From NCBI GenBank assembly GCA_035400625.1, contig DAOMZT010000002.1:137649-201648 (forward strand): 64,000 nucleotides of DNA, read 5' to 3'. Below are positions 30,125 through 64,000 of this stretch, piece by piece. A program made the translations under genes and the position numbers. Under the pieces are notes generated by a model that was given only the letters and a program-made list of their open reading frames with translations, had not been told where the DNA came from and did not search any database. Positions within the stretch are counted from its first letter, which is position 1; each line of letters starts with the position of its first letter. This stretch comes from an archaeon. Lineage in GTDB: Archaea > Iainarchaeota > Iainarchaeia > Iainarchaeales > CSSED10-239.

Positions 30125-30469
30125 TTATCTCCCAAACCTTGCAGTACCCCAGATAAGTACAGATGTAAACCCATAAATCAAAAAGAAATATAATAAAAAC
30201 GCACCTGTTGCAATATAAAAATATTTAAATATAAAATATAACATAACACCTAACACAATAAATGTTAAAATACTATTACCAAATGCTGGTGCGACCATAC
30301 CATAAACAACAAAAGCAATAATAATCATAATAACATACTTAAGTATTGGAACTGCAGAAACAGCAAGTGGAACTGTAAAAATCACTAATAAAATTACAAT
30401 TAATATCTTCCAAATTAAGGAGGCATTTTTTAAAAATGGAATAAAGTTTAAAAATCCTTTAGTATTCAT
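30125..30469 (-). CDS. Small polytopic membrane protein (114 aa, ~4 TM), last gene of the giant-protein cluster
   Basis: Almost entirely hydrophobic. Its ATG overlaps the upstream stop by 1 nt (TAATG), suggesting translational coupling. Confidence 0.65.
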   Translation of the reverse strand: MNTKGFLNFIPFLKNASLIWKILIVILLVIFTVPLAVSAVPILKYVIMIIIAFVVYGMVAPAFGNSILTFIVLGVMLYFIFKYFYIATGAFLLYFFLIYGFTSVLIWGTARFGR

Positions 30470-30867
30470 TATCTTCTCCTCATTCTACTCATGGCTTGAC
30501 GTCTAGCAGCAAACAATTGTTCCATATCTACTTCTGATCCTTCATCACTCATTCGATAACCTTGACTTTGATTTCCAAGCATATCTTCAGGACTTGTGCC
30601 GCCTCCATGACCCTCTTGCATAGTTACAAAGAAGGTATCTACAAGAACAGAGCCAATACCTATTGTAATTAATATATATATGACATATATAGATCCAAAT
30701 ACTGGCCAGTAGAAAAATACTAAAACAATACAAACAATTACAATTGCTGTAATTGCTAGCCAATTTTTGGTTATTCTTTCTCTTACAAATATGATTATAA
30801 ATATTATAAATGCTAATTTTAATAAAAATGACATGTCGCTAAAAAAACCCAATATTGTAAAATCCAT
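30469..30867 (-). CDS. Small membrane protein (132 aa, ~3 TM) with charged C-terminal tail
   Basis: Three hydrophobic helices, then GHGGGTSPEDMLGNQSQGYRMSDEGSEVDMEQLFAARRQAMSRMRRR. It starts 12 nt after the stop of the 2178-aa gene. Confidence 0.65.
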   Translation of the reverse strand: MDFTILGFFSDMSFLLKLAFIIFIIIFVRERITKNWLAITAIVIVCIVLVFFYWPVFGSIYVIYILITIGIGSVLVDTFFVTMQEGHGGGTSPEDMLGNQSQGYRMSDEGSEVDMEQLFAARRQAMSRMRRR

Positions 30868-30879
30868 TTTTATTCTGCC

Positions 30880-33800
30880 TTATTTTATTATATCTGTTGT
30901 GGGGTTATCACTATTACCTAACACACCTGAATTTTCAATTATTTGATCTATTTGTTCTTGTGTAAAACCCACATTTTCATCAATCCATTTTATAGTTGTA
31001 ACTGTAAGTCCACTTCTAATACATGCATCATTATTTATATAATTTAAAAGACTATTTAAACTTACTGTGTTAGTGGTTAAATTTCCAACCCTTGTCATGC
31101 TTTTTATATTATCTGTTGTAGTTGAACCTTCTAAGTTTACTAAATAATAGATTTTTGATCCAGGGTTGTTACCACAACAATTTGAACCGCTATCACTTAA
31201 TACAAGATATATATCTGAAATGTTTTTTGCATAATAATTCATTGGCCAATACATCATTGTTTTTATTAATTTAATATTGTTATTATTGCCATAAACAGAT
31301 TCAAATTTCTTACCATCAATCATTGATTTTAAATAACTCCCTGCACTACTATAATATTGTCCATCTGCTAAAGTTTTGTTCTCATTGTTATAATCTTGCC
31401 ACACTAAAAAATTTGCAAATGCTATTGTAATATTTTGTGTTTCTCCTTTCCGTAATTTATAACTAAACCCAGAAACATTACTATTAACTACTTTTGCATA
31501 AAGTGGTATTGGATAACTTGGAGAGTATGTCATATCAATATTAAAAGATTGATCATCAGGGTCTATATTTGTAAGAATAAGATCTAACAACTTCCCTTCT
31601 GATCTTAGCGTATTTTTAAAATTGTCTGCATCATTTTGCAAAGTAATTATTGCCCTACTTTTGTTTTCATCATTGGCTGTTGGATATATAAAATATTCTT
31701 TTTGATCGCCTATCTGTACAGGCAAAGGTGTTTGTGAATCTTGTGTTAAAGAAGAGCCATAACCGACTCTTGCTGATCTTTTGTTTTGCTCATTACCAAC
31801 AATTCCTAAATCTCCATCTATAGGAATATAATATAATAAATTTCTCATAGTGTATGGCATTTCTCTTACTAATTCTAATTTTATATGTAGTGGTGTTGGT
31901 TTGCTTACAGAAAATTCCTCATTTATTGTTATTCTATATTTTCCTGGCTTTAGAGTTTTTACCTCATTACCTGAGCTATCTATTTCTATTTTTGACACTG
32001 TGAATTTATCTGCATTAATGTTTGCATCAGATAATAAATCATAATTATCCCAATTAGTATTTACTGCACCCATAAATTCATCATGATTTACAAAGTCAGA
32101 CAATAAGTCTTTTGTCACCCCATCGCTCATCAGATAAATATATTTGTTGTTTATACTTGTTCCTGATGTGTTAATTAAATTAAACACACTAAACAACATC
32201 TGTAAAGAATCACAATGCGTTTTAGTTTCATCATATCCTTCTAAAGTATTTTCTATACATTTTTCTTTCCAATTTGTTGAACCAGTCCAATCATATATTA
32301 TTTTTAGTTTTGCATTTTCTCCATTCTTACAATCATTAAGGTTTTCTGTATCACAATTTCCTAATATATAGAAATTATTTGATTCATCAATATTTATACC
32401 ACCAACCCCTAAACAAATATTTCCATACAAGCCATTTTCTCTTAGTAACTCTTGAAGATTTTGTAACCAAACAGATATTTTGAATTTTGTGTTTTTGATT
32501 GTGTCAAAGCTTTGACTTTGATTTATGCCAATTATCTTATATTCATATTTTATAGTCTTATTAATTTCTTTTTCTATTACTCTTATATATTCATTTGAAT
32601 TATTGCTCCCTTTTAATGAATCATAATTACCAATTACATTTAATGTTATCTTTTTAGTGTTATCTACGTTTTGTGAATCTATAGTAATTGGCAACTGTGG
32701 AGATGAAACATTTATTGATAGGTTATCATCTTGTTGCATATTAATGCTAGTTAAATTAAAATCATAGGTTCTAGTTTTATTTGTTGCAGAAACAATCATC
32801 TCAGATGTACAATTACTGCTTGTACAGTCCATTGTTTTTATTGTTGGCTGAGTAATAACAAATGCATCATTACTATCAAAAAGGCTTATTTTGGTTTCTA
32901 TAGTTTCTGTAAAAGTTATGCCATTTAGTGTATAGTTTATATTAATGGTTAGTGGCTCGTTTCTTAAATCTGGATTTATTATCTTGCTATTATTTAAATC
33001 AATTGTTATAAACAGTTGCTCAGAGGTGTTTGGAGCAATATTCAAATTATTAGAGGTTATTGTAATATAACCATTTAAGGATTCATTAATAATCGGAGTA
33101 ACATTTGCAAACAAAGGTTTATTAGAGCCATTTTCTATATTTAGATTAAAGTTCACACTTGAGTTTCTATTTTTTATCAGTTCAATAATTAAATCTTCTG
33201 TATCTTCTGTTGATACTTTTATTCCAGGTTTTGGCAAATCCACATACGAGGTGTTCAAATTTAGATTAAAAAATAAATTTGTTTTAAATGGGGCATTAAG
33301 GTCTAATCTTATTGGCTGATTATTATAATTTCCTGCATTAATTATATTATGATAACCACCTGTAACTGAGGCAATATCACTATCTTGTGTGGTATCTTCA
33401 GTTAAAGGAACTGATGGACCTTTTGGATCTTGTGGTGGCGTAGAACCATTTCCATTTGGCAAATCCAATATTGAAATTCTTGTTTTTATTTCTTTATTTA
33501 AGTCTGACAAATATAATGGGATGTTATTCTCTGTATATATGTAGTTGTTAATATCCTGATAATCTAAATATTGAGTAGGATTAGGATAAGGATCAGCAGC
33601 AATCAGCCATCCATAGACTTGATTTGTTCCTTTTATATAATATTTCTTTAGATCCTTTGTAAACTTAAAATTTCCATTGTAGGTATATTTTCCAATATTA
33701 TAAACTATAGTGTTTCTTGAAGAAATTTCTGTTCCATTTTCTAAGAACAATCTATAATTTGATTTTACTTGCTTAGATATTGTAACAGTGTTATTTGAAA

Positions 33801-36800
33801 GACCATAATTTGCAGGGAACAAGAAACTAAAATAAATATTGTGTCCTAATTTTGTAAGTGGCAAAGATAAATTTTTATTTTCTAGCATTCCATTAGAATT
33901 TGTTGTTCCAAACACTATTGTTTGTGGAGAATTAACAACAGCTGATATTTTAACTCCAGATATTGGACTACCAGATATATTTCTAACCCTAAAACTAATA
34001 ATATTATCTCCTGCATATATATCATTATTTTCTGTTGTATCTCCAGTAATAATTTCTATTATTACATTAGCATCTGTTGGATAATATGCTAAAACAGGAA
34101 CAGAATACGGATTTAAACCAGAAATGTTTAGTATATCTGTAGTAATATTAGAATCTGTATTTAAATCATAACTTGTACTATCATTATTTGGCTGGTATAA
34201 TGTGGCACTAGCCATACCAACATTGTGTATAAGATTGTTATTTTGATGATTATTTTGGTTGTTATTATGTTGATTAAATCCACTAGGCGTATTATTAATA
34301 AAGAAATCTGTTGCTGAAATTACTGAGCTGTGATCTATTTGGGTTGCTAGGGTTGCATCTATATCATTTATTGTATAATTTATTGCATTAATACCTGTTG
34401 CATTAATGTCTGTTTGAGTATTATTAGAATGATTTCTTTTCTTAAATTTATATGCATTATATATTAGATGATTATATGTATTTACTGAGTTTGCAACAAC
34501 CGACCCATTTATTGTATTATTTTTCAAATATAATAATTTCTGAGAATAATAATAGTTCTTACCAATCTCTAATATATATTTGCTACCAAGTGGAGTTAAT
34601 TTTTGACCAACTGTGTTTGTGGGTAAATTATAATCATAAATATCATATAAGAACATATAATCAGAATTATTAAATGTTAATGCGCGACTGTGATAAGGAC
34701 TATAGAAATACCCGTCAGGAACCATATCACATTCTTGCCAAGAAGTACTCAAATTAGGGCTCAACTTATATTCATTATCTTTTGTCTCTGTTAGCCCCTT
34801 ATAATAAATTACATAATCAGAAAGATTTGTTATACCATTTTGGAATTTCACATCAACAAAGAATTCTATTTGTTCTGCAAGAGTGTCTGAAAAGTCAATT
34901 TTTACCCATTTAAAGCCAGAAGTTGATGCTGAACAATTTGTTTGAGAATGATCAATATCGTTATTTGCTAAGAAATGGGCAGGATCCCATACTGCCGTTT
35001 CTCCAGAGAAGTTACAGCCATATTCGTTTTCGCTATTAAATGCTATTACTTTTTCTAATCTTAAATAATCTGATGGTAAAGCAACTCTTTTCCCTGCCCT
35101 GACATAAGCATATGCACGATCTCTGTTCTCTTTTTTATTAGTTGTTAATTTAAACTTTAATTTAAAGGTCTTAGAATATTCTGTTGCTAGATTGATTATA
35201 TTTTTATCAATATTTCCACTTTCATCATATATACCTAATAATTCAATATTAGAAAACGCTTCTGTTCTGGTATTTGAAAGAGCGATGGTGCGATAAACTT
35301 TTTGTCCAGGAATAAGTGTAATTAAGCTTGTTTGATATGTGGATTTGCCATCTGCAGTAATTATTGCATATATGTTTTGAGAAAATTCATTAAATATATA
35401 TTCTTTGTTAGAATCTTGAGAGGTTCCAGCCACAACATAGTTTGTTATTTCGTCTCCATTAGATTTAAAGAAATAAATATTATAATCAATTGTAGGTGTT
35501 ACTTTAAGATTTAATATTGTTGCCTGATCTTCTAATTCCACATCTAGTTCCATAAATTCATTAGCATCTAATCTCTCAGTTTGTGAAATGCCCTGTTCTG
35601 GACTTTTAATTGCATAGGCATAATATTTTCTACCAGACCTAATAAATGAGAAATTACAATCTCCTGAACTATTTGTTATTTGTGGACCAGCAATTGGTAT
35701 ATCGTCGTCACCATCTCTGAAAATATATACACTTGCTCCAACTACATTGTATGCGCTTCTAGAAACATTAACTCCAATTTTACCAGTATTAAGTTCAGAT
35801 GAATATTCTAATGGCACAGTAATTGTTGCATTATTATCAAAACTATTCAAATTTATAATGTCAGGGGCAAAATAACCATAATTTTCTGTATTTGTTACAG
35901 AAATTCTATAAGTTACTGAACTAGCAACTGGCAAAGAAAATGTTGCTTTATTAGTATCTTCTCTTGTGCCTACAGCTTTAACTAAATTTGTATCTGTTCT
36001 TTTTGTATATATTGTGATATCCCCCCTTATTTCTCTTTCAGTATTGCCATTAGCATCTACTAAAACTACATTTAATGTCTTTCCACCAGTTGTTAATAAA
36101 ACATTTCCTGTTGTATTATTATTTATTGATACTTGGTATGGTCCAAATCTATCTAATGTAGAAACATAACCTTCTTTACTTGCAGAAACTGTATATGCTC
36201 CTGGAGTTAGGTTAGTAAACACATAAGTTCCATAAATGGTTGTTGTTCCTGAAGAAACAAATATGTTTGATTCGTTTATTTGCGTTGTTGGATCATCAGG
36301 CCTATATAATTGTAAATACACATCTGGAATTGCTACTTGTGTGTTTTGATCCTTTACTGTTATTTCTAAGGTTCCATAGTTTTGTGCTATTGGTGTTAGC
36401 ATAATTACATTACTTTCAGGAACCAATCTGTTTTGAATAGAATTGTAAAATTCAGAATAAACGTCAACTCTTAAATCTCCACAACCAGCTGGAACACTAA
36501 CAGATAATTGTCCTGTGCTTGTGCTTTTTGAACTAGGATCTGGTGTAGTGCCTGAATTTGCACAGCGTAAATTTACTCTTATTGGTTTTGTTGCTAAAAG
36601 TATATCATTTTCTTTAAAAACTAAATTTCTGGTTGTTGGGTTCATTAGATGTAATTTTAAATTAGTGTCTATTTCTAATTTCACTAAAACTGAATTATTT
36701 CTGCCTTTAAGTTTTAGTTCTTTTGTTTGAGTATTATAAGATTCTTTTTCTACAATTAATTTAACATTTTTTTTCTTCCCAAAATCTTCAAAGATTGCTT

Positions 36801-37416
36801 CTCCAAAGACTCCTGTTTGAGATGTTTTGTTTATATCTCCAATTGATAATATTGCTGTTGCTCCAGAAACTGGCATATCTAAAATATCAGTCACAGTAAC
36901 TTCCAATACTGGTGATCCCATAAGACCACTAAAAATTCCTGAAAAGAATATTAACCAAATTAAAGCAAATATAAATATTATAAATAAAATAAAGCTAGGA
37001 AATACTTTGTCTATTTTATCTACTAATTTTCCTATTGGTATAACTTTATTTATGCCATCGATCATAGAATAATAAAGATTTTCAAAAAAGAAATATATCT
37101 TCTTAAAGAAAGTAATTATTGGTAAAAAGATATTTTTCTTATCTTTTTTTGGAGCTACAAGTGATGGTTTTTCTTTAGTGTCTTCTTTTAAAGATTTAGA
37201 AATTTCTTTAAGAATCTTTTCTTTTTCTTCTGGTGTTGTTATTATTTTTTCTTCTTTTTGTTTATTATCATATAATTTATCAACTACTCTTTTGGCTACA
37301 TCCTTATCATAGCCATCAAAGATAATTAATTTCTCTAATTCCTCTTTTGAGAAGCGATTTTCTCTGCCTTTTAGCATATTGTAGATTTTCTCTACTTCTT
37401 CATCTTTTTCATTCAT
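30880..37416 (-). CDS. Giant membrane-anchored surface protein, paralogue P1 (2178 aa)
   Basis: ATG start. About 150 aa of charged N-terminus is followed by a single TM helix (SFILFIIFIFALIWLIFFSG). Several ~90-aa segments show a carboxypeptidase-regulatory/transthyretin-like pattern (LEVTVTDILDMPVSGATAIL..., GTLEITVKDQNTQVAIPDVYLQLY...YGTYVFTNLTPGAYTVSASKEGY). It is collinear with P2 over most of its length. The C-terminal ~520 aa (30880-32430) is shared with P2, P3 and P4. Confidence 0.9.
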   Translation of the reverse strand: MNEKDEEVEKIYNMLKGRENRFSKEELEKLIIFDGYDKDVAKRVVDKLYDNKQKEEKIITTPEEKEKILKEISKSLKEDTKEKPSLVAPKKDKKNIFLPIITFFKKIYFFFENLYYSMIDGINKVIPIGKLVDKIDKVFPSFILFIIFIFALIWLIFFSGIFSGLMGSPVLEVTVTDILDMPVSGATAILSIGDINKTSQTGVFGEAIFEDFGKKKNVKLIVEKESYNTQTKELKLKGRNNSVLVKLEIDTNLKLHLMNPTTRNLVFKENDILLATKPIRVNLRCANSGTTPDPSSKSTSTGQLSVSVPAGCGDLRVDVYSEFYNSIQNRLVPESNVIMLTPIAQNYGTLEITVKDQNTQVAIPDVYLQLYRPDDPTTQINESNIFVSSGTTTIYGTYVFTNLTPGAYTVSASKEGYVSTLDRFGPYQVSINNNTTGNVLLTTGGKTLNVVLVDANGNTEREIRGDITIYTKRTDTNLVKAVGTREDTNKATFSLPVASSVTYRISVTNTENYGYFAPDIINLNSFDNNATITVPLEYSSELNTGKIGVNVSRSAYNVVGASVYIFRDGDDDIPIAGPQITNSSGDCNFSFIRSGRKYYAYAIKSPEQGISQTERLDANEFMELDVELEDQATILNLKVTPTIDYNIYFFKSNGDEITNYVVAGTSQDSNKEYIFNEFSQNIYAIITADGKSTYQTSLITLIPGQKVYRTIALSNTRTEAFSNIELLGIYDESGNIDKNIINLATEYSKTFKLKFKLTTNKKENRDRAYAYVRAGKRVALPSDYLRLEKVIAFNSENEYGCNFSGETAVWDPAHFLANNDIDHSQTNCSASTSGFKWVKIDFSDTLAEQIEFFVDVKFQNGITNLSDYVIYYKGLTETKDNEYKLSPNLSTSWQECDMVPDGYFYSPYHSRALTFNNSDYMFLYDIYDYNLPTNTVGQKLTPLGSKYILEIGKNYYYSQKLLYLKNNTINGSVVANSVNTYNHLIYNAYKFKKRNHSNNTQTDINATGINAINYTINDIDATLATQIDHSSVISATDFFINNTPSGFNQHNNNQNNHQNNNLIHNVGMASATLYQPNNDSTSYDLNTDSNITTDILNISGLNPYSVPVLAYYPTDANVIIEIITGDTTENNDIYAGDNIISFRVRNISGSPISGVKISAVVNSPQTIVFGTTNSNGMLENKNLSLPLTKLGHNIYFSFLFPANYGLSNNTVTISKQVKSNYRLFLENGTEISSRNTIVYNIGKYTYNGNFKFTKDLKKYYIKGTNQVYGWLIAADPYPNPTQYLDYQDINNYIYTENNIPLYLSDLNKEIKTRISILDLPNGNGSTPPQDPKGPSVPLTEDTTQDSDIASVTGGYHNIINAGNYNNQPIRLDLNAPFKTNLFFNLNLNTSYVDLPKPGIKVSTEDTEDLIIELIKNRNSSVNFNLNIENGSNKPLFANVTPIINESLNGYITITSNNLNIAPNTSEQLFITIDLNNSKIINPDLRNEPLTININYTLNGITFTETIETKISLFDSNDAFVITQPTIKTMDCTSSNCTSEMIVSATNKTRTYDFNLTSINMQQDDNLSINVSSPQLPITIDSQNVDNTKKITLNVIGNYDSLKGSNNSNEYIRVIEKEINKTIKYEYKIIGINQSQSFDTIKNTKFKISVWLQNLQELLRENGLYGNICLGVGGINIDESNNFYILGNCDTENLNDCKNGENAKLKIIYDWTGSTNWKEKCIENTLEGYDETKTHCDSLQMLFSVFNLINTSGTSINNKYIYLMSDGVTKDLLSDFVNHDEFMGAVNTNWDNYDLLSDANINADKFTVSKIEIDSSGNEVKTLKPGKYRITINEEFSVSKPTPLHIKLELVREMPYTMRNLLYYIPIDGDLGIVGNEQNKRSARVGYGSSLTQDSQTPLPVQIGDQKEYFIYPTANDENKSRAIITLQNDADNFKNTLRSEGKLLDLILTNIDPDDQSFNIDMTYSPSYPIPLYAKVVNSNVSGFSYKLRKGETQNITIAFANFLVWQDYNNENKTLADGQYYSSAGSYLKSMIDGKKFESVYGNNNNIKLIKTMMYWPMNYYAKNISDIYLVLSDSGSNCCGNNPGSKIYYLVNLEGSTTTDNIKSMTRVGNLTTNTVSLNSLLNYINNDACIRSGLTVTTIKWIDENVGFTQEQIDQIIENSGVLGNSDNPTTDIIK

Positions 37417-41084: not shown

Positions 41085-41108
41085 TTTAATTTGTCACCAT
41101 TTATACAA

Positions 41109-41180
41109 TCACCAAAATAACAATAAAACAATAAACTCAATTATAAGTATGATTATTATTAATTTTAAAGTTAGTTTCAT
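41109..41180 (-). CDS. Possible 23-aa hydrophobic micropeptide (MKLTLKLIIIILIIEFIVLLLFW)
   Basis: An ATG preceded by AGGGGAAATTAC (SD-like) and TATA-like boxes. It is the only ORF in the 288-nt gap between P2 and the 467-aa gene. It is very short, so confidence is low. Confidence 0.25.
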   Translation of the reverse strand: MKLTLKLIIIILIIEFIVLLLFW

Positions 41181-49399: not shown

Positions 49400-49469
49400 G
49401 TTTTTCTTGCTTTAAATTTATGTTGTTTTTTACATTTTTTATTTTGTGTTATTTTTCATACTTTATATT

Positions 49470-55800: not shown

Positions 55801-57369
55801 AGTTCCAACATTTATTGTCATTGACATGTTTGTGTCTGTTGGCGGAGTGTGAGTGAATTTTTGAGATGAAGAAACAACATTTGCTTTTCTTAGCTTTATG
55901 AAATATTTGCCTTGGGCTATGCTTTCAAAATTAACCTTTCCAAACTCGTCAGTAACCAAAGAATCATATCTGGTATCTTGGAATTCATTATCTCCGTTAT
56001 AGATAATTAATGTTGCGCCAATTACTGGGAGATTTTCTTCATCAAGAACAGTAACATTAATGTCTGAAACATTACTTATGGTTTCTTTTTCTAAATTGAA
56101 AATATAGCTGTTTGCGTTTGGAGTTATATCTTTAGTTGTTGCAAGATAGCCTGTTGCTCTTACTGTTAATGAATAATTTTTTGATTTATCTATTCTAAAA
56201 GAAACGCTTGTTCCTTCATAACTTTTAGTGTCTACTGTCTGCAAACTGCCATTTATGTCAGTAATTAAAAACACTTGTGCTAAAGCACTAGAATTAAAAT
56301 CTACACCTGTATCAGAATCTTTAGCAATTACTGTTATGTCTCTTGTCTCTATGTTTGTTTCAGTATCTCCTGGATTGCCTCCTCCATTAATTGCAGACAT
56401 CTCAACACTCAGTTGTGTTTCCGTGTCTTTTGTTATAGTAAATGTGCTTTCTGCAGATTCATATCTTAAAGAATCATCTGTTGCAATAACCTTGTATTCT
56501 CCAATCTCGATATTTGCAAAAGATTTACCGCCCATTGTTGTTTGGCCTGAAACAACAGGGTTAATTCCATCTTCCATAGCATATATCCTCAAAGTAATTC
56601 CATCAAGATAATTTGTACCACTCTTAACTCTTATTGTTGCTCTTCCAGTTCCTGTTACTGCTGCTTTTGGCGGGACATTAACAACACCTGTTGTTTGGTT
56701 GATTGGAATACCACTGCCAGAATAATTTATTCCGATTGCTGTTGCAACCATGTTTGTACATGAAACTGGAACATCAAAATTAGCAGTACCGTTTGTTACT
56801 GTTGAAGATGTTGGCTCAATTGTTGTTCCATCTTGGCAAGTAATTGTTACATTTAGATTTTCAGAAATTTTCTGACCATTTGCACCAACAAATGTCAAGG
56901 TCTTTGATTGTTTATTTGGTAAATTAAAAATCAATATAGTGAAGTTTTGTCTGGTTTTACTTAAATCAATATCTTCTTCAAAATACTTATAGCCTGCTTT
57001 ATCAACAACAACAGAATAGCTACCATATTTATCTAGTTCTAAAGAAAATTGACCATTATTACCAGTTCTGTAATTTTGAGTAACGTCCTTATCTTTATCT
57101 TTTAATTGAAACTCAAAATTTCTTAAGATTTCTCCACCGTCATCTGCAAGACCAATTGTGAAGAATATTGCTTGTGTTCTTTCTCCAGATAATCCAAATG
57201 GCTTAAATATAAGCAACAACACAACAATTACGAAAATTATAAAAAGAAAAAAAGATGCTAGCGGATGTATTTTATCAATTGGCTTTGTTAACCATTTGAT
57301 TGGTACTCTGTTGTTTATTTTATCTAAAAATTCCTGGTATTTTAAAGCAAATGACATTTTCTTACACAT
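49888..57369 (-). CDS. Giant membrane protein, paralogue P3 (2493 aa) with N-terminal anchor plus an internal TM cluster
   Basis: ATG start. The N-terminal anchor (FLDKINNRVPIKWLTKPIDKIHPLASFFLFIIFVIVVLLLIF) is homologous to that of P1. There are at least 5 CarboxypepD_reg-like segments (e.g. INVTVLDEENLPVIGATLIIYNG...FGKVNFESIAQGKYFIKL; FDLTVVAIDESGLPVSGALVNIY...YGKAIIPMP). An internal hydrophobic block at aa ~1500-1570 corresponds to nt 52650-52870. The C-terminal ~700-aa module (49888-52000) is closest to P4. Confidence 0.9.
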   Translation of the reverse strand: MCKKMSFALKYQEFLDKINNRVPIKWLTKPIDKIHPLASFFLFIIFVIVVLLLIFKPFGLSGERTQAIFFTIGLADDGGEILRNFEFQLKDKDKDVTQNYRTGNNGQFSLELDKYGSYSVVVDKAGYKYFEEDIDLSKTRQNFTILIFNLPNKQSKTLTFVGANGQKISENLNVTITCQDGTTIEPTSSTVTNGTANFDVPVSCTNMVATAIGINYSGSGIPINQTTGVVNVPPKAAVTGTGRATIRVKSGTNYLDGITLRIYAMEDGINPVVSGQTTMGGKSFANIEIGEYKVIATDDSLRYESAESTFTITKDTETQLSVEMSAINGGGNPGDTETNIETRDITVIAKDSDTGVDFNSSALAQVFLITDINGSLQTVDTKSYEGTSVSFRIDKSKNYSLTVRATGYLATTKDITPNANSYIFNLEKETISNVSDINVTVLDEENLPVIGATLIIYNGDNEFQDTRYDSLVTDEFGKVNFESIAQGKYFIKLRKANVVSSSQKFTHTPPTDTNMSMTINVGTGTIRFNIKNINEETISFANIKLYSQIGEEIGTDQATQNGEYSKTIKADKILYAKISKEGYYDYYTELIPIISGETITKDIKLIRVGTVSTLTADFVGLFNEQNQKVEYLAQNSKFYFKFRLINPTEGTVGFRFLAGDKETAEEDIIHIRTMYDTKANVSYYSNTNLTIVTPDIRAKVIDAKFVNASVGVYELLVPVGTVQANRGQAAPIYYSVFTSTPPILDNLNSQKVYYIDTEEICSETFCLSGQYVDVSEDIVFDLEAVNNLVVNKTYNLKYVLTNAKSNVYNNNRLLIANVENTTEMFANAIDILSYNITGGRFEDSGSADNQLRNKIPFTSDYLNIPQINVYDKIEINTTIKPAVLGTSRFQNKIISNQSVVYNEFMTFNVSQQYPFTITYEPKNIVPNKPFDLTVVAIDESGLPVSGALVNIYQRRANNQQIKITSGTIRTNDYGKAIIPMPVLRTGERIIINLEKSGYFAESVEFTVEENIISLKQDNTKITDKAPFTININKTNPDGTERVLTIINNTDYPLQLKQFKDDSFNFRYSNYLNIPKLQQYLNSQVANIVIPANGEENLRIKIATSQDAEELIQTLNITGNIIGYVSVDNSQAEYPFNIPISLKVSVGEGVEEDDCLVIQGANNPWKQVVSSNDSVSFSFDIQNNCVVKGTEGQSLPLDTIRAKIVNSKDMFGSYNLTVDGKTITLSEGSYTTILKNLSPGGHHAVLTYYSQEKKFGDVETKIYINGQVKTNDGLKYVNTTRDVAFTTNIAIRKIQDCIEFYDGSKKINDMFVITKETNTGEVKELTVKNNCADLGRFRLNFCEDIETNPNAFEGCGNIKYDNLEGFNDNELRFKFGESSLVAGIKKPEVPGGYLVPVKIAILNSNDKAITTIYKNLKINVHSSKGLYMEDPFIEVDKNSSGAYNSATVKLLNHDINTTPWDYAMKKVGDTGFSKYMSKNYDYQNPGYENIKWSKFDDLVNTDVKGINTGQSIAIGTSVLAVETGIIAIFAMLSKTATFVGIITAGAGPLSIVAWTAVGLAFIGGAVAHTFYSVYKYIPEYQFANVDQIYAMPRIESDKEIIISSTDEQLEYINVFDITGARYVTYLKGKGDGYGKLVKNKTLSMAVPNCNELEHKQQFFNYGYVSEAKNCNVDFSEIKKESDKITYSVECQGGWPRKKIKLTTHTYSFCKYDEIIWPEQSGIKPLSFTISDVNDVNKLSLGDNLYKTITFYPTLDDQIEGQDPAFEGAKEIGKFRFAFISKQYPERLPISIDLEDCITDSGRSGKTGKDALPNVSFNWDWKDDKDIDKCSDGNYCDATQLSQVIVSRLINADALITKNKNNISCPRSNAQVIDQATAGTYNLTSSIPQWSGEVPANYTGIDQVRFGTDGNLTKIQVSVQNRTTAQQTGSIRIRFGEYVPKYYSNYDSVGNLVDTTITSATPEQNIQIMIPTGEDDSIDYTFTYGTEDQPIIGNNIPLTVIYSGTNAYSGEPSYTYYQTDINASIYQASVGTGCQVPATTAQFNGVDYIDMWFDANVYPNNVVNSWDKETINKLKNYLEFDAYLITDNYNQQFLNDFDKAHGGKASGSNVIAESWFSAPGAYQNGIYSPLFRDHTSFSQKYTADSQNGVNIIVPGKYRVRIDLVYNNENWRLTKDNGEIDAKVVVTFTYIRGPENDSVFYRMPFDGFVGMQNSNSYSRQNYGLGYIGDVITITRLDNKELKTEYLGSSNPKKYLNVQHNKDFFKINSNVETRGNLFTIKEKTDNQIEMIYSPSVANPVIMKVKKTNLYPFSAYYQLKNDKTGEIMFGGNSLGIWTGVSKENPRNLDFSGDYVFFKFNNFYDRQSEPDERMSNSYAIDWEDIARTGTVYLRTIFYTPYDSDNNPIKYNLISKTRGNQESVLFMNDYNQDMSTITLGNSNNKIYSLEELFKKVENKEVCVVNSDNGKTTEFYWNPKTIYETDGNMFIGEGLVEGIAN

Positions 57370-57464: not shown

Positions 57465-59381
57465 TCATCTACATTTAGTAGATGGCTCATTATAGCAAAA
57501 CTGGTAAGCTGTAGGGACTTTGCCTCTGTCTGGTGTTCCATATAATACTAATCCATAATTAGATGTACATTTAGCAGGAACAACTCTTTTTGCACCACTT
57601 TGTTGTATAATACATACACAACCCCATTGATTTGTAGTTAGATTTGCATTACTACAAGCATCCTTTGTATTGTTTCTTGTAGAATAATATTTGCCAGCGC
57701 CCTCATTTAAATTAGGGACATCTTGTTGTGGTTGTTCATTATCGTTTGGTAATTGTGGTGTGGTTGGCGACCCGCTTGTTCCTGAACTGACATAGCTGGT
57801 CAAATCTATATCTTCATAATTTAAATGATAGCCATTATAACAGTTCTTTATTACTTCACATCTAGAATCTAAACCAGGTCTGCAAAAATAATTTAGAACT
57901 TTTCTGTTTAATTCACAATGACTGTAACTTAAAATCTCATCATTAGTTAGAATAAAGATGTTTGCATAAGCGATATTTAGTTTCTTATCTGATTTTTGTA
58001 AAAACACAACTACAAATTTCTTGTAAGGACTGTTTGGCTCAATTTTAAACTGAACTAAATTGCCATTTAATTTAAATTTTATTTTGTCCATTTTTGGTTG
58101 AGTTAATTTATAATTTATTACTGTTTCTCTAGTCTCTGGCAAGAACAATTCATAATCCCCTAAATCATACTCATAAAGACCAGGTGCATTATTTTTAACT
58201 TCTTTTTGATTTACTTCGCATGCATTAACACAAGAATTATTTACTGATTTTTTTGAAGTCGCATCTAATTCTCCATTAATCAAATTTAAGTTTGCAAATG
58301 TTATAGACATTGGGAAATATTTAATTTCAGAATCTGCTGTTTTTCGGTATTTACAATTACAAGAAACATTATAATAAGGAATTACTTCTGTAGTTTCTCC
58401 TTGATAGTAAGAGTATTCTGAATTGTTTGTACTTACAAATTTATTGATTTCTGGAATTATGTTATCATAATTTTCTTCATTTGCTATTAACATATAAATA
58501 TTTTCATTAAAATTAAAACCATTTTCATCTAATTGCATTTCTATTTTTATATCTCTACCTATATATGCGGTTAAAAGTTCTGAATTGATTACAAAATGAG
58601 GAACCTCTATATTTGTTTTATCTACATACTTGATTGGGAAAACACTTGTGCCTGTTTCTGAATTAACTGCAACAAATCCAACCTTTTCAATTAAACTTGG
58701 AGCTAATACTGCATCTGAAATTGTATTGCTATTGTCAAGTGTTTCTTCTGTAGTATTTTCTCTCGTAGTATCTACAGGTGTTTCTTCTATATCTGGTGTT
58801 CTCAAATCACAAATTGCTTTTCTTAATCTGTTTGTTTCTAAAGGTTTTGAAAATGGATATGGGTTTGGTTCAATAGCATGACCTGATTTTTGATCTTTAT
58901 AACAAACATAATAACCTGTTTTGTCATCTGTACATTTGTAAGTGAATGGATAACCACTAACTTTAATAAAACCTACATCAATACAATCTTGGGTAAAATA
59001 ATCTACTCTCGTATAATTTACAGGCCCCCTACTATTATTGGTTGTGTTATTGGTTGTGTTATTGACTCGTGGGGTGTTTCTATAGTTTGTTTCTGTTCTT
59101 TTATCTCCTTCAACTACATAGCATTGTGATGTTGTTTCTTCGCAAGCAATTATTTTCCTATTATCAAGACCCCTATATACCATACTTGCTGCATATTTTT
59201 GAGCAGGATCGAATTTATCCCATTCATAAAAAGCAGTTTGGCCTGAAAACCATGGTGCACCGCCCATTATATTTCCAAAATTATCTGCTTGCAAATATCC
59301 TGGTGACCATGCAAAAGTGAATTGCAAACAAAATATAAATATTAAGCTTATAGCAACAATTGTTGTTTTTTTAAATCTCAT
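57465..59381 (-). CDS. Secreted Cys-rich protein (638 aa), function unknown
   Basis: Signal peptide MRFKKTTIVAISLIFIFCLQFTFA. Many Cys residues are clustered at both ends. An internal region (APGLYEYDL...IKFKLNGNLVQFKI...FVVVFLQKSDKKLNI) resembles the 775-aa neighbour. Confidence 0.8.
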   Translation of the reverse strand: MRFKKTTIVAISLIFIFCLQFTFAWSPGYLQADNFGNIMGGAPWFSGQTAFYEWDKFDPAQKYAASMVYRGLDNRKIIACEETTSQCYVVEGDKRTETNYRNTPRVNNTTNNTTNNSRGPVNYTRVDYFTQDCIDVGFIKVSGYPFTYKCTDDKTGYYVCYKDQKSGHAIEPNPYPFSKPLETNRLRKAICDLRTPDIEETPVDTTRENTTEETLDNSNTISDAVLAPSLIEKVGFVAVNSETGTSVFPIKYVDKTNIEVPHFVINSELLTAYIGRDIKIEMQLDENGFNFNENIYMLIANEENYDNIIPEINKFVSTNNSEYSYYQGETTEVIPYYNVSCNCKYRKTADSEIKYFPMSITFANLNLINGELDATSKKSVNNSCVNACEVNQKEVKNNAPGLYEYDLGDYELFLPETRETVINYKLTQPKMDKIKFKLNGNLVQFKIEPNSPYKKFVVVFLQKSDKKLNIAYANIFILTNDEILSYSHCELNRKVLNYFCRPGLDSRCEVIKNCYNGYHLNYEDIDLTSYVSSGTSGSPTTPQLPNDNEQPQQDVPNLNEGAGKYYSTRNNTKDACSNANLTTNQWGCVCIIQQSGAKRVVPAKCTSNYGLVLYGTPDRGKVPTAYQFCYNEPSTKCR

Positions 59382-59398: not shown

Positions 59399-61726
59399 TT
59401 ATTTTTTAAATGTATATTCTGGATTTAACCAAAAGTTTATAGAATCCTCTGTTATATTAAAGCAGACTCTATCCTTAGTTACAAGACTCATGGTAAATCC
59501 TATGTTGTTTGTTTCTATTCCTGAAAACAAATCAGAATAGATGAATTTTCCTTGTGGATTATCTGACTTTATGCTTTTTGGAATATTATATGTGTAGATT
59601 CCATCTGATGTGTTTGGAGAGATTGGCAAATTTAATGATATTGGAGAGCTAGATGTTAATATTAGTTGTGGTTCTTTTTCTTTATTTTCCAAAAACACAA
59701 ATAATGTTTCTTTAAAAGCACCTGTTCTATTGGCAGGTTCACTATATCTCCCATTTTTATTTATATATTTATAAGTGTATCCTGATGGTGCAGTTATTTG
59801 TATTGGTCTAATATCCTTAAATATTATGTCTTCTAATTTATTATTATTTAATTTAAATGAAACTACATAACCGTTTTGTATCTTTGGCCAATCACTAAAG
59901 TCTTTATAGACTGTTACACTCTTTGATTTTTCTCCATATTTTCCATCATGTAATCTTATTGGTAAATCTCCATAATCGTAATACATTGCATTTATTGTAT
60001 TGGTGAAAAGTGCATTTTTCTTATAATCTGCATTTTCTGGCTGATTATAATAATCTAAAAATTTCTTTGTTTGATCATCAGCATTTTTCACATTATATGT
60101 TATGTTCTTTCCATCTAATTTCAAATCAAATACATACAAACCAGGAGAATCTATTTGTTTTATTTCTGAGTCTGTAGCTAATTTTATTTGCTTATCGATA
60201 TTGCTCATAAATCTAACAGATTCAAAGATTTCCTTTGTTAGCCCTGTTTCTAAGGAGCCATATGGTTTTGTATTTATTAAAACAGGAGTTACAGAATCTC
60301 CATAATAGATATCTATGTTTTCCATTAGTTGTTTTAAGAACACTAAATTTGTTGCTTTAAAATTATTATCTTTTGGCTTTGATTTTATGTACTCTTTAAA
60401 TTTAGCTTGATTATTCAAAAAAGAATACATGGATATTTGATATCCATAATAATTTGCTTTATCTGTTTCTTCTTTTTGTGGCGAGTAACTATAGTTGCTA
60501 TTTCCACTTATTATTTTTATTCTTTCTTTTATTTGGGATTCTGTTAAATTACTCAAGAAAACACTGTCTTCCTTGTCATTTAATATAACATCTATAATTA
60601 CAAACTTTCTTAATTCTTCAGGTATTTTATTTAATGTAGAAATTATTGTGTTGTAATATATTTCTGGATCTGAAGAATAAGTAAATTCAGAAGTTATTAA
60701 ATTATTTGCTTGTATATTCATTTTCTTACTATCAAAATATAATAGATAATTTGGTAATATTGCATTCTTTTCAGATTTAGTAAATGTTATTCCATCTAAG
60801 GTAATTGTTTGGCCTTGTTCTAATAATTTGCCTTTTAAGAATAATGCATATTTTAGTTGATCCTGGTCAACATAGTGTTCCCCATAATCAAATGAATTGT
60901 GGGCTATGCCTTGTTCTTCGTATGTGAAGAATAACTTATCAAATCCGTATTTTTCGTAATTTTCTTCTCCTGTTAGGCCTGTAATTGCTGTTCCGTGAGG
61001 GTTATAACATGTGCCTGCTGTTTCTGTTTTAGGTAAAAATTCAGAAGTATCTTCAGGCGTTGTTACTGCGTCTTTGTCTATACAGCCTAATGGTTCAAGA
61101 TTTACATTTAGAGTGACTGTAAAATCTGCGATTTTTTTATCAAACCACCATTTTCTTTTTTGTTTTATAGTAAATACTTTTTTCTTATTTTTATTATCAA
61201 GATAAGATTTGTTTTGTATAATTCTTTCAGAATCGTTTAATGTGGTTACTGGTCTATTAATACAAAGTTCTAATTTGTTTCCTTGCAAAACATTTATTGT
61301 AGAAATTACATTTCCATTAACTAATGTGCCTGTATCTCCTTGTTTTATATATCTGTTTGCTTCTTTAAGTTCTTGAGCATCTATTGGTATTATTATACAA
61401 GAGGTAGCATAGTCTCCTGTTTGTAAGAAATTATGTCTGTATTTTAAAAATTTGTCAGAAACAGTTATATCGATATTAGTTGATGAATAATTTAAAGTTA
61501 CTACATTTTCTGGTGATATATACATTGCATTATCATTATTATATTTTAATTTTAATCTTTCAGACAATGGTGTTTTTTCAGAAGAACAATCAAATAAGCT
61601 AATTGTTGTTTCTTGATCTGCAACATCATCCGAATTTGTGCTATACGCAAAAACAGTTGCAGATATCATAAGCAAACTAAATATTACAAAAATTGATTTT
61701 AAAAATGAAGATTTTGTTTTTACCAT
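59399..61726 (-). CDS. Secreted protein (775 aa), function unknown; its C-terminus resembles the end of the giant-protein C-module
   Basis: Signal peptide MVKTKSSFLKSIFVIFSLLMISATVFA, with SD-like GGAAAC upstream. The C-terminus ...SLVTKDRVCFNITEDSINFWLNPEYTFKK aligns with P3 (...KKVENKEVCVVNSDNGKTTEFYWNPKTIYE) and P4 (...LVTQKKACVNYDNKSFEVFYNPKEISQE). Confidence 0.8.
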   Translation of the reverse strand: MVKTKSSFLKSIFVIFSLLMISATVFAYSTNSDDVADQETTISLFDCSSEKTPLSERLKLKYNNDNAMYISPENVVTLNYSSTNIDITVSDKFLKYRHNFLQTGDYATSCIIIPIDAQELKEANRYIKQGDTGTLVNGNVISTINVLQGNKLELCINRPVTTLNDSERIIQNKSYLDNKNKKKVFTIKQKRKWWFDKKIADFTVTLNVNLEPLGCIDKDAVTTPEDTSEFLPKTETAGTCYNPHGTAITGLTGEENYEKYGFDKLFFTYEEQGIAHNSFDYGEHYVDQDQLKYALFLKGKLLEQGQTITLDGITFTKSEKNAILPNYLLYFDSKKMNIQANNLITSEFTYSSDPEIYYNTIISTLNKIPEELRKFVIIDVILNDKEDSVFLSNLTESQIKERIKIISGNSNYSYSPQKEETDKANYYGYQISMYSFLNNQAKFKEYIKSKPKDNNFKATNLVFLKQLMENIDIYYGDSVTPVLINTKPYGSLETGLTKEIFESVRFMSNIDKQIKLATDSEIKQIDSPGLYVFDLKLDGKNITYNVKNADDQTKKFLDYYNQPENADYKKNALFTNTINAMYYDYGDLPIRLHDGKYGEKSKSVTVYKDFSDWPKIQNGYVVSFKLNNNKLEDIIFKDIRPIQITAPSGYTYKYINKNGRYSEPANRTGAFKETLFVFLENKEKEPQLILTSSSPISLNLPISPNTSDGIYTYNIPKSIKSDNPQGKFIYSDLFSGIETNNIGFTMSLVTKDRVCFNITEDSINFWLNPEYTFKK

Positions 61727-61822
61727 AGTTGTTTCCTTTTTTCAGTTATTTTATTATTCATAAAATTAGTAAACATAAATATTTATTTACTTATCTGTTA
61801 AGAAGAAAAGAAAAAGAAGAAT

Positions 61823-64000
61823 TTAGTTTTTAATACAACTAAATTCGTCTCCTGTATTACTAGGAGTTGTTTCTATCTTGCTGTTTATTGTGTCTGTTAG
61901 TTCTTGAGATATCTCTTTAGGATTATAGAAAACCTCAAAAGATTTGTTGTCGTAATTTACACAAGCTTTCTTTTGTGTTACTAGGTCAAAGACATCTGTT
62001 ATTGAAACTATATCGTGATTAAATCTGTTAGTTAATTCAACATAATCATTAGAGCCTGCCAAATTATCTAAAGTATAGAACTTCAAGCTGTCATTTGCTA
62101 CATCTTTATGTAAGTAGCTTGTGCTTTTGCCAGTTCTGAAGTTTGATGGGGTGTAAAAGATTGTGTACATCCAAACATTTCCTGTTCTTACAATTATATC
62201 TTTTTCCCACTCTATACCATAAGAAAAGGTTTGGCTTTGAGTTACTGGTGCTAACTTTGATTCTGTTGAGACAAGATCGCCAGTTGCTAAAAATCTCTCA
62301 AGCAATGGAACGCCAGTAAAGTCTTTACAATTAGCAAAGCCTGTCCAATATGCTAAACTTAGTCCAGGGCTTGCTACTTCTCCACCTTGTCCTAATGGTA
62401 AGCCTAGTGCAAGCTTATAGAATGCCCATGCATTAGTATTTACAGCTGTATTTTTTACTTTCATAACTACTGGTGTTGGCCTAGATGGTATGTATCTTAG
62501 CTTTAGTAGGTTATTTTGTTCTCTATTAATAGACAATAGCTTACCTCTTTCATTTCCATTATTCATTATTGCAAAATCTTTTACTTCTTTTGTATCAATT
62601 GTTGAAACAGTATTTGATGAAACATAGCCTTCAGTAAACATCGCTCCTGAATAATTACTTTGTGAATCTAGATATATTGGAACTTTGTCATTTAGATAAT
62701 CTACACCATAGCCGTTTCTTGTTTTATCTCCTGTACTTCCAACAAGACCATCAAGTGGCATATAGTATAGTGGATAATCAATTTCTGGATTTTGTTCTTT
62801 ACTTATTACTACTTCTATTTTTCCTGTCATGTTTCCTGCATCATTGAATAATCTCCAACTATCATCATAATGTATTATTATTTTTACATCATATCTTCCT
62901 GGTCCTGATAATGTTTGATTAGTTACAGAGCCTGAATTCATTAGAACAAACTTGAATTTGTCTTTATCTGTAAAGTATTTATATAATGGTGTATAATTGG
63001 ATTGTGTTGTTAAGATTTCTGATGATCCATACCATTGTGGTGTATCTTTTAAGAAAGTTGATCTATAATAATCATCAAAGTCTTTTTTGAAATCTTCACT
63101 ATATCCATCTTTCATTAAATATGCTCTGAAGTTATATAGTTTTTCATCAAAGCCAGGATAGTATTTGTTTAAGTTTTCTGAAGTCTTAGGTAGACTACAG
63201 CCCATTGTTCCGCCAGTTATGTTTGTTTGTGTTGTTAAAATATTATCTATTAGGTTATTTCCTGTTTCGTTATGTGCGATTGCTTCGTGGAAGTTTGTTA
63301 ATGTTAGCTTTATTTTTATTATATCTGTATCTGTTGGGGTTGATGAAAATTCCTCTATTTTTATTTCATCTAGATAATCTCCAGTATTTAGATAGCTTAC
63401 TGGCACTGATACTTTTCCACTTGCTATCTTTTCCCAATTAAATGAGTTTTCTGCTTTTTTTGTAACTTCATAATCTATGTCAAATAAAGATCTTGAATCT
63501 GAAACAGGCATAGACAATTGATAGTTTCCTCTGACTTTATATGTGAAATTTAATCTACTACTACTTATTTTTTCTACATTGATATATGTAATTCCTACAT
63601 TATTGACATCGCTTACTAATGATTGTTCAGTAACTGGTGTTGGACAAGTAAATGAAGCATTATTTGTTCTTACAATTTCGTTTATCTTATTTATTTTTTG
63701 TAAGACTTCTATTGATAGTTGAGTTGCATCACAATATATGCCATTATTTGCAACATCACACCATTCGCTATTTTTTACTTCTGTTCCTTCTCCTGTTATT
63801 GGTGTTACTATTTTATTTTCTTTAAAATCCCAATTGTATGCTACTTTTGGTAGGACTTCAGTTCCTGTTGTGCCTAGGATCATCCCTCCTTCAGTAGTAC
63901 AATCTAATAAGGTTGAATCAATTGGTTCTGCGTTTTCATCAACTCTAGAATTGAATAATAAACGGAATTTTTGTACTTTTTCTACAGGTATTTTTGGATA
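61823..64000 (-). CDS. Giant protein paralogue P4, C-terminal >725 aa (5' end lies beyond the right window edge)
   Basis: The frame of the listed 61823..63883 ORF stays open to nt 64000 (YPKIPVEKVQKFRLLFNSRVDENAEPIDSTLLDCTTEGGMILGTTGTEVLPKVAYNWDF...). The extension aligns with an internal region of P3 (KEIGKFRFAFISKQYPERLPISIDLEDCITDSGRSGKTGKDALPNVSFNWDW), so the Met at 63883 is internal. Confidence 0.85.
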   Translation of the reverse strand, partial: YPKIPVEKVQKFRLLFNSRVDENAEPIDSTLLDCTTEGGMILGTTGTEVLPKVAYNWDFKENKIVTPITGEGTEVKNSEWCDVANNGIYCDATQLSIEVLQKINKINEIVRTNNASFTCPTPVTEQSLVSDVNNVGITYINVEKISSSRLNFTYKVRGNYQLSMPVSDSRSLFDIDYEVTKKAENSFNWEKIASGKVSVPVSYLNTGDYLDEIKIEEFSSTPTDTDIIKIKLTLTNFHEAIAHNETGNNLIDNILTTQTNITGGTMGCSLPKTSENLNKYYPGFDEKLYNFRAYLMKDGYSEDFKKDFDDYYRSTFLKDTPQWYGSSEILTTQSNYTPLYKYFTDKDKFKFVLMNSGSVTNQTLSGPGRYDVKIIIHYDDSWRLFNDAGNMTGKIEVVISKEQNPEIDYPLYYMPLDGLVGSTGDKTRNGYGVDYLNDKVPIYLDSQSNYSGAMFTEGYVSSNTVSTIDTKEVKDFAIMNNGNERGKLLSINREQNNLLKLRYIPSRPTPVVMKVKNTAVNTNAWAFYKLALGLPLGQGGEVASPGLSLAYWTGFANCKDFTGVPLLERFLATGDLVSTESKLAPVTQSQTFSYGIEWEKDIIVRTGNVWMYTIFYTPSNFRTGKSTSYLHKDVANDSLKFYTLDNLAGSNDYVELTNRFNHDIVSITDVFDLVTQKKACVNYDNKSFEVFYNPKEISQELTDTINSKIETTPSNTGDEFSCIKN

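Follow-up and report, generated by a model that had tools for sequence, protein, structure and literature searches.

How DPANN archaea recognize, attach to and exchange with other cells is an open question, for which SPEARE proteins, pili and host-derived nanotubes are candidates in only a few cultured lineages. The SPEARE proteins of Nanohaloarchaeota contain serine-protease, laminin-G/adhesion and restriction-endonuclease domains and include a cytoplasmic enzyme part (Hamm et al. 2019, PMC6642349), and in Nanoarchaeota the highest density of non-synonymous single-nucleotide polymorphisms was found in hypothetical surface proteins and was read as a sign of host binding (PMC6142677). The locus described here lies in a stretch of 64,000 nucleotides from an archaeon of the Iainarchaeota (GenBank assembly GCA_035400625.1, contig DAOMZT010000002.1, positions 137,649 to 201,648 of the forward strand), which is referred to as the window and numbered from its first letter. 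Unlike the SPEARE proteins, it is a multi-gene cluster, in which giant membrane-anchored proteins are accompanied by secreted partners and carry a novel C-terminal module, the C-module. The cluster was not found described in the literature searched.

From the tRNA-Arg gene (30013-30086) to the right edge of the window, the open reading frame (ORF) listing shows an unbroken, tightly packed run of 12 co-directional genes on the minus strand, with the sizes given in a preliminary description of this DNA. Since the same gene order recurs in at least eight archaeal species represented by metagenome-assembled genomes (MAGs), sequence comparison supports the view that the locus is a dedicated, conserved multi-gene unit and not a chance run of ORFs. 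The interpretation that we favour, tentatively and with somewhat less than an even chance of being right, is that the cluster encodes an envelope complex, exported by the Sec route, that makes contact with other cells or a host and has specificity subunits that vary between strains. The locus would be a conserved candidate contact system, with a defined gene set, for an uncultured freshwater lineage. The features of the run are as follows.

30125-30469, minus strand: TM114, a small multi-pass membrane protein of 114 aa by hydropathy, the final gene of the run.
30469-30867, minus strand: TM132, 132 aa, lying 12 nt beyond the end of P1, with about 3 transmembrane (TM) segments and a basic tail at the C-terminus.
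30880-37416, minus strand: P1, a 2178-aa giant.
30883-32496, minus strand: C-module of P1, the short form without the immunoglobulin-like (Ig-like) insert, from alignments and profile search.
37423-39666, minus strand: M747, 747 aa, a predicted secreted Gly-rich β-solenoid protein and predicted partner of P1.
39681-41084, minus strand: M467, 467 aa, a predicted secreted protein.
41085-41372, minus strand: the 288-nt gap between P2 and M467.
41373-47312, minus strand: P2, a 1979-aa giant with an N-terminal TM anchor, an Ig-like ectodomain and a C-module.
41376-42872, minus strand: C-module of P2.
47327-49399, minus strand: M690, 690 aa, a predicted secreted Gly-rich β-solenoid protein and predicted partner of P2.
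49470-49877, minus strand: S135, a small secreted protein of 135 aa, directly downstream of P3.
49888-57369, minus strand: P3, a 2493-aa giant.
49891-52149, minus strand: C-module of P3, the long form carrying a β-sandwich insert, from profile search.
52313-52978, minus strand: strain-variable cassette of P3 (about aa 1464-1686), swapped in locus L016.
52666-52842, minus strand: Gly/Ala-rich hydrophobic hairpin of P3 (aa 1510-1568), from hydropathy.
57465-59381, minus strand: M638, a secreted Cys-rich protein of 638 aa.
59399-61726, minus strand: M775, a secreted protein of 775 aa.
61823-64000, minus strand: P4, of which the last 725 of 980-984 aa are inside the window, the reading frame running off its edge.

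Spacing between the genes is mostly 6-17 nt, and TM114 and TM132 overlap by 1 nt. Four gaps are longer (288, 96, 95 and 70 nt); the first three and the overlap had been reported correctly, and the fourth, between S135 and M690 (49400-49469), had been missed. A 26-nt unit is present in 2.5 copies at 49410-49474, within this 70-nt gap, and could be regulatory; AT-richness makes chance plausible. An alternative TTG start for S135 at 49907 (145 aa) would overlap the end of P3. The extent of 34 kb first assigned to the cluster is too short: identical public contigs carry two more giants, of 1741 and 2448 aa, past position 64000, and the full cluster comprises at least 14 co-directional genes over about 47 kb, roughly 6% of an 813-kb contig. 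The exact M775 sequence is present on 20 public contigs. Over 14.6 kb, two of these match the window at 100% identity, namely JGI 3300010357 Ga0116249_10000002 (813,239 bp) and NCBI GCA_029563035.1 JAKQTP010000138.1 (598,880 bp). In contigs 100% identical to the window P4 is complete, with 980-984 aa, a cleavable-looking signal peptide and a stand-alone C-module; of the four giants originally counted, only P1, P2 and P3 are giants within the window, and P4 is this signal-peptide protein. Upstream of P4, just past the right edge, the 1741-aa giant (L017:1707-6932) shares its N-terminal anchor motif with P1 and P3. Its ectodomain is P3-like, the hexapeptide KEPDPN is repeated in tandem about 24 times, and its Cys-rich C-terminal domain resembles that of M638. 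The 2448-aa giant lies upstream of this gene, and its C-terminal part is paralogous to M775.

The relationships within the cluster were established by BLASTP with SEG and composition-based statistics. P1 and P2 match at E=8e-165 (30% identity over 1763 aa), P3 and P4 at E=4e-40 (26% identity over 733 aa), and M690 and M747 at E=1e-10; the C-terminus of P1 matches both P3 and P4 at E about 1e-6, and P1, P2 and P3 are also related across their N-terminal ~600 aa. With these corrections in force, the paralogy is real homology rather than an effect of composition, a doubt that the preliminary description had itself raised.

The C-module is present in P1, P2, P3 and P4, whose alignment has 36 invariant columns. 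It spans 480-730 aa, with a Cys near each end, and the invariant motifs are C...W...C...CDxxQ, YLxxD..DF, PGxY, YxxPxDGxxG...RxGYG, SPS.xxP and Y.L...W; the modules of P3 and P4 hold an insert of ~200 aa. A profile search against 1.84 billion cluster representatives recovered 696 proteins at E<=1e-3, 411 of them at E<=1e-30, and among these matches the module is always C-terminal, in proteins of either 2000-3100 aa or ~1000 aa. Its start has a Cys...GxTG...YCDxxQL-helix motif in common with the M775 family (hhalign 84%, E=7e-6). Scans of 43 members against Pfam, NCBIfam, PHROGs and PADLOC turned up nothing beyond Ig-like domains, and the module itself has no match in these databases or among PDB sequences. 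A confident AlphaFold2 model of the P4 module, built from a 43-sequence alignment, is mostly β (predicted local distance difference test, pLDDT, 86.3; predicted template-modelling score, pTM, 0.79). When this model was compared with known structures by Foldseek, no PDB match fell below E=1e-3 and no fold-level neighbour was found in PDB or BFVD; the only credible local matches were to single Ig-like domains (TMq<=0.15), and BFVD matches had template-modelling scores (TM-scores) of <=0.14. The C-module is new at the family level and, judging from the predicted model and as far as PDB and BFVD show, at the fold level. It would add a sizeable uncurated domain family, of about 700 sequence clusters, to the databases.

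Hydropathy agrees with the N-terminal membrane anchors first proposed for P1, P2 and P3. In P1, ~130 cytoplasmic aa and a juxtamembrane motif precede the TM anchor (aa 134-171, nt 36904-37017), which is followed by an Ig-like/transthyretin-like ectodomain and the C-module. The anchor of P2 is at aa 26-60 (nt 47133-47237). In P3, the motif and anchor (aa 30-63, nt 57181-57282) are followed by an Ig-like ectodomain of ~1450 aa, an unexpected second hydrophobic stretch at aa 1510-1568 and the C-module with its insert. The same architecture extends to the wider family, in which an N-terminal TM segment was found in 120 of 127 proteins of >=1800 aa. The juxtamembrane motif reads roughly Y..hLDKhN..hPh......hDKh.PSF and precedes the TM segment. 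P1, P3 and the 1741-aa giant have it, and it was detected in 55 of 100 family giants as compared with 11 of 530 control windows; giants with as well as without the C-module carry it. A pre-module hydrophobic stretch of the P3 type (Gly/Ala-rich, 30-55 aa, ~50-150 residues before the module) is present in 66 of the 127 family giants, and its frequent central P/G/W turn suggests a helical hairpin. Proteins of the P4 class have a conserved Gly-rich, Gly-zipper-like sequence, GxxP(I/V)xHG(L/V)(I/V)GGxxSGxxTY, after the signal peptide, which resembles the second half of the P3 hairpin.

Of the two features that all four large proteins were said to have in common, the C-module is real homology, and CarboxypepD_reg, of the transthyretin-like Ig-domain type (Pfam PF13620, PF17802), exceeds the Pfam gathering threshold of 32.3 bits in P1 (42.7 bits, E=7.5e-11) and P3 (67.5) only. 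P2 scores just below it (30.5), and the Pfam scan gave no CarboxypepD_reg match in P4. This transthyretin-like domain was matched in 18 of 19 family giants, where it marks a domain type and not a function; all Pfam matches in these 19 giants were to β-sandwich domains (CarboxypepD_reg, SpaA, bMG3, MG4, Big_1, SdrD_B and similar). The early impression that the cluster holds no enzyme, ATPase, secretin or pilin was borne out: in the cluster proteins, the 19 giants, the 43 C-module members and seven members of the M775 family, Pfam, NCBIfam, PHROGs and PADLOC yielded no such family and none linked to defence or phages, and PDB sequence and profile searches with the cluster proteins were empty save for insignificant matches of the Obg N-domain on Gly-rich repeats. 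A CelTOS match of M775 (E=0.023) was not repeated in six relatives and was dismissed as chance.

All six mid-sized proteins have hydrophobic N-termini by hydropathy, in agreement with the signal peptides predicted for them. Their proposed arrangement in paralogous pairs is for the most part incorrect: by profile comparison M690 and M747 are clearly related, S135 resembles the C-termini of M467-type proteins weakly (hhalign probability 36-61%, and 36% against M467 itself), and M775 and M638 show no relation to each other. The C-terminus of M467 matches the proteins in the equivalent position of other loci with 94.6% probability. An AlphaFold2 model of M690 from 19 sequences (pLDDT 80.8) has strand pairs about every 50 aa along its GNGGxGG repeats and a β-rich C-terminal part, and the prediction for both M690 and M747 is a repetitive β-solenoid whose turns are Gly-rich, which fits the secreted solenoid components first imagined. 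In S135, M467, M690, M747 and their orthologues, an aromatic-Pro-Phe type motif lies 5-10 residues from the C-terminus (..TFPFKLS in S135, 49470-49500; ..EYPFKIHK in M467, 39681-39715; ..NFPFVPL.. in M690, 47327-47370; ..YFTPLFNIK in M747, 37423-37460) and might serve these proteins in common as a strand for docking or a signal for sorting.

Conservation of the neighbourhood was examined by a pattern scan covering one genome per GTDB species. It returned eight archaeal MAG loci, one labelled Candidatus (I)ainarchaeum sp., with P3 proteins 36-63% identical to that of the window. The conserved order begins with a P4-type gene (~1000 aa) and proceeds through a P3-type gene (2450-2520 aa), a small secreted protein and a Gly-rich M690/M747-type protein (670-830 aa) to a P1/P2-type giant (2000-2140 aa). 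By ORF calling and BLAST it was seen in loci L001, L004-L011 and L015/L016, at P3 identities of 36-90%. Some genomes have two solenoid-plus-giant units (the window, L006/L016) and others one, and every P1/P2-type gene is preceded by a solenoid gene. S135 orthologues hold the same position in L003, L004, L005, L006 and L016, and M775- and M638-like genes sometimes sit after the P4-type gene. Between species, divergence is faster in the mid-sized proteins than in the giants.

As in the window, the last giant is followed by TM132 and TM114 in L005, L020, L021 and L022. The downstream genes c87 and HU are equally syntenic there, and therefore synteny cannot tell membership of the cluster from mere neighbourhood. 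TM132 is 76-88% identical in loci whose giants are 38-50% identical, and the two proteins together are 62-96% conserved against 38-50% for the adjacent giants of the same loci. The pair might act as conserved membrane partners for the anchor motif of the giants, or might be housekeeping genes with no link to the cluster.

The pattern of variation between strains is apparent from L016, a 520,848-bp contig of the same species from another sample. While P4, P2 and P3 are 98.7, 97.9 and 90% identical to their counterparts in the window, identity falls to 70% for M690 and M747 and to 53% for M467. In these three proteins only the N-terminal and central parts diverge, and the last 100-200 residues are about 100% identical: M690 varies over aa ~50-600 (nt 47600-49252) and is conserved in its C-terminal ~150 aa, M747 varies over its N-terminal ~600 aa and is conserved in its C-terminal ~200 aa, and M467 varies over its N-terminal ~400 aa. 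In the blastn comparison of the two loci, blocks of 96-98% nucleotide identity are broken by segments without a detectable match. A 0.65-kb segment of P3 (aa ~1464-1686), with the hairpin in it, is replaced in L016 between flanks of 96.8-98.2% identity. M775 and M638 (4.3 kb) are absent from L016 by a precise indel, and L016 in turn has two genes, of 136 and 178 aa, that the window lacks. One frame of the 288-nt gap reads '...LSVEEIVFFKF...', of which EEIVFF matches the 178-aa membrane-anchored protein found at this position in L001 and L016; on this one short peptide match the gap may be the remnant of a decayed 178-aa gene. It may also hold a putative internal promoter for an M467-M747-P1 unit.

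The gene of the 1741-aa giant also varies. Its product has 1741 aa in L017 but is 72 aa shorter in L018, at 1669 aa, with the gap inside the repeat array, and these two loci are otherwise 100% identical to the window; the change in KEPDPN array length may be contingency-like variation or an assembly collapse. In L019 the gene encodes 1953 aa and diverges after aa 1505. Variation by a diversity-generating retroelement was rejected, as the changes are whole-segment replacements with indels, at 14-70% identity, and not point changes in a short repeat. Moreover, no reverse transcriptase was recognised among the window ORFs, where not every context ORF was profile-scanned and no search for template and variable repeats was made.

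If the cluster does encode a contact complex, the giants would be held in the membrane by the N-terminal signal-anchor, with the conserved cytoplasmic motif ahead of it, and would project long arrays of Ig-like/transthyretin-like domains. P1 and P2 would bear the C-module at the end of the stalk, P3 would be tied to a membrane by the Gly/Ala-rich hairpin just before the module, and P4 would be free or peripherally attached. The C-modules of these three protein classes would assemble with one another into its core. A Gly-rich β-solenoid protein and a small secreted protein are encoded along with each P1/P2-type giant; their conserved C-terminal parts would dock on the complex, while the parts that vary between strains, N-terminal and central, would be exposed and confer specificity. 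The map of constant and swapped segments thus predicts which subunits determine specificity. A contact or host-recognition role appears to be the best fit and accords with the small-genome DPANN context and the precedent of variable surface proteins in Nanoarchaeota, and it gains indirect support since the secreted subunits undergo strain-level allele replacement.

Several points weigh against this interpretation. No recognised adhesin, lectin or receptor-binding domain was found in the cluster proteins, the organism may have no host, and assembly through the C-modules is purely our inference. An N-terminal anchor together with a C-module near a second hairpin is hard to square with a stalk and distal tip, and the hypervariability between strains would equally fit diversification of a structural coat driven by viruses.

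This last point leads to what appears to be the next best explanation, which is possible though less likely, namely a structural envelope coat (S-layer-like or a sheath) that replaces a classical S-layer protein and whose variable parts are epitopes diversified under virus pressure. The genomic investment is very large, the chromosomal position beside housekeeping genes is fixed, and the proteins are all β-rich, Asn-rich, acidic and free of enzymes, as may be expected of a coat; three stoichiometric classes of module could also form a lattice unit. The mosaic hypervariability resembles that reported for the Haloquadratum walsbyi cell-wall genomic island (PMC4535781). On the other hand, at least 14 different genes are far beyond the need of known S-layers, and Pfam and NCBIfam scans gave no S-layer family. 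The usual S-layer topology is a signal peptide with a C-terminal anchor or PGF-CTERM. The anchors here are N-terminal, and a separate 3311-aa protein with the classical topology is encoded 20 kb away. If the cluster were a coat, it would provide a first picture of the envelope in this lineage.

It is also conceivable, if rather improbable, that the cluster is an unknown kind of inter-cellular bridging machine. The giants, anchored in the membrane of the symbiont, would span the gap between cells, and the Gly-zipper-like P3-type hairpin, with the half-copy in P4-type proteins, would insert into the membrane of the partner cell. The C-modules of the three classes would then form a new-fold hub at the contact site, and the swappable β-solenoids and the P3 hairpin cassette would set the host range of each strain.

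About as improbable is the absence of any joint machine, where the genes would be a tandem array of independent adhesins or secreted proteins that grew by duplication and was kept by shared regulation or history. Paralogy is indeed found throughout (P1/P2, P3/P4, M690/M747, M775 with the 2448-aa giant, M638 with the 1741-aa giant), strains gain and lose cassettes with no harm that is apparent, and it is again only inferred that the products assemble. However, the order and the one-of-each-class set (P4, P3 and P1/P2 types and solenoid) are kept down to 36% identity, the solenoid gene is always ahead of a P1/P2-type gene, the gaps are just 6-17 nt, and the anchor motif is common to giants with and without the C-module.

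A reading of the giants as α2-macroglobulin-like protease traps, or as another extracellular capture or defence device with the variable P3 segment acting like a bait region, is very improbable and was largely refuted by fold, thioester and motif tests. Weak MG3/MG4 Pfam matches in 6-7 of the 19 giants, the hypervariable internal segment of P3, and a Foldseek list topped by α2-macroglobulin and complement C5 (E about 1e-3) had pointed to it. These MG matches fall on generic β-sandwich domains, and the Foldseek alignments are not fold matches, with root-mean-square deviations of 30-33 Å and TM-scores of 0.10-0.12 (4ziq: TM 0.12, 33 Å). There is no thioester domain, the C-module model has few helices and no α/α toroid, and instead of CxEQ the invariant motif is CDxxQ with other spacing. 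Least credible of all is a mobile or virus-derived island at tRNA-Arg, such as a polymorphic-toxin or tail-fibre-like cassette, for which the adjoining tRNA gene, the GC content of 25-33% against 29-34% and the strain-variable cassettes could be cited, but which has no relatives among 2.9 million IMG/VR viral contigs, no PHROGs or PADLOC matches and no integrase, shows conserved C-termini with varying N-terminal parts, the reverse of polymorphic toxins, and keeps its chromosomal position by HU and HisRS even in distant relatives.

The genomic setting is archaeal and DPANN-like, as first supposed, and this is supported by the class III signal-peptide pilin, the ATP-dependent DNA ligase, the contigs of 599-813 kb and the relative labelled Ca. 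(I)ainarchaeum. Archaeal housekeeping genes (ATP-dependent DNA ligase, ProRS, HisRS, AlaRS) occupy the left half of the window, together with ScpA/B-like, KaiC-like and DUF63 proteins, the pilin and HU, and the GC content of the window is ~30%, slightly lower in the cluster. Asn makes up 9-16% of the cluster proteins and Lys+Arg 8-10%, as compared with 3-6% and 13-22%, respectively, in their cytoplasmic neighbours, a composition that appears compatible with export when set against these neighbours rather than against known exported archaeal proteins.

Further observations were made among these neighbouring genes. The 3311-aa ORF (355-10290, minus strand) has an N-terminal signal peptide, a C-terminal TM anchor and a basic tail, a topology opposite to that of the cluster giants, and 2.4% Cys; it gave no meaningful Pfam match and no BLAST similarity to the cluster proteins, and it could be the organism's classical S-layer or adhesin candidate. 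A 762-aa protein (14192-16480, minus strand) combines a Lon_C (S16) protease domain, without an AAA+ module, with a hydrophobic segment near the N-terminus, a TM segment near the C-terminus and a tail rich in Lys; it resembles a membrane-bound or extracytoplasmic Lon-like protease. A 143-aa protein (17613-18044, minus strand) has a class III (type IV pilin-like) signal peptide, which suggests that the organism also bears pilus or archaellum-type surface filaments; no assembly ATPase is found near it save a stand-alone KaiC/RadA-like gene at 18153-18863. A 60-nt repeat in two copies of 96% identity (19055-19173, plus strand) lies within a 196-aa ORF, where it duplicates the 20-aa segment FSESFNARMKENIFSN; the C-terminal residues of this ORF look J-domain-like by eye. 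HU (29380-29649, minus strand) is a bacterial-type DNA-binding protein in an archaeal setting, 94-100% conserved among relatives, and the 145-aa plus-strand ORF antisense to it (29393-29830) is probably spurious, its BLAST conservation being a shadow of HU.

In a comparison of the cluster with known folds and systems, the predicted Gly-rich repetitive solenoids M690 and M747 are similar in architecture to the HMW1 two-partner-secretion domain (2odl), phage tailspikes (6w4q, 3riq), the Obg N-domain and a springtail antifreeze protein (7jjv). The nearest folds of the M690 model in a Foldseek search of PDB, the HMW1 adhesin β-helix, phage tailspikes and a polyglycine II (PGII) bundle, are not significant (E>=0.013, TM<=0.17; Obg E about 0.2), and the likeness remains at the level of architecture. 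A two-partner-secretion or autotransporter adhesin was rejected on the basis of the 2odl match (E=0.013, TM 0.17), with no Pfam match to the secretion domain or to ShlB and no TpsB partner. Archaea are not known to have an outer membrane. A phage tail fibre or tailspike was likewise rejected, with no PHROGs match, no IMG/VR loci and BFVD TM-scores of <=0.14, as was a polymorphic toxin or Rhs protein, with reversed polarity and no toxin or immunity family in Pfam, NCBIfam or PADLOC.

Like the SPEARE proteins, for which a role in host interaction has been proposed and of which one variant is N-terminally anchored, the cluster giants are very long, mostly extracytoplasmic, membrane-anchored DPANN proteins that take up several percent of a small genome. 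Unlike in SPEARE, the serine-protease, laminin-G/adhesion and type III restriction-enzyme domains are absent from the cluster and the 19 giants, and the sequences are unrelated. The cluster resembles the Haloquadratum walsbyi islands (PMC4535781) and the Nanoarchaeota surface proteins (PMC6142677) in that alleles are replaced, and genes gained or lost, between near-identical strains. It differs from them in that its backbone of giants and C-modules is syntenic across species, only sub-regions or small cassettes vary, and the protein families are unrelated.

Bacterial Ig-repeat giants (SpaA/SdrD/Big/CarboxypepD_reg arrays) such as Giant1-5 of Apilactobacillus kunkeei (PMC12863079) are comparable in their prealbumin-like/Ig-like arrays, and in A. 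kunkeei also in having several consecutive giant genes that occupy several percent of a small genome. Whereas the bacterial proteins have C-terminal cell-wall anchors or secretion systems, those described here are archaeal and have an N-terminal signal-anchor with its motif, a hairpin and a novel C-module. The cluster belongs to none of SPEARE, the hypervariable cell-wall islands and the bacterial Ig-repeat clusters, since their defining domains were tested for and are absent. By analogy, overall it appears akin to the giant surface-protein islands of reduced-genome microbes, built on a new protein module.

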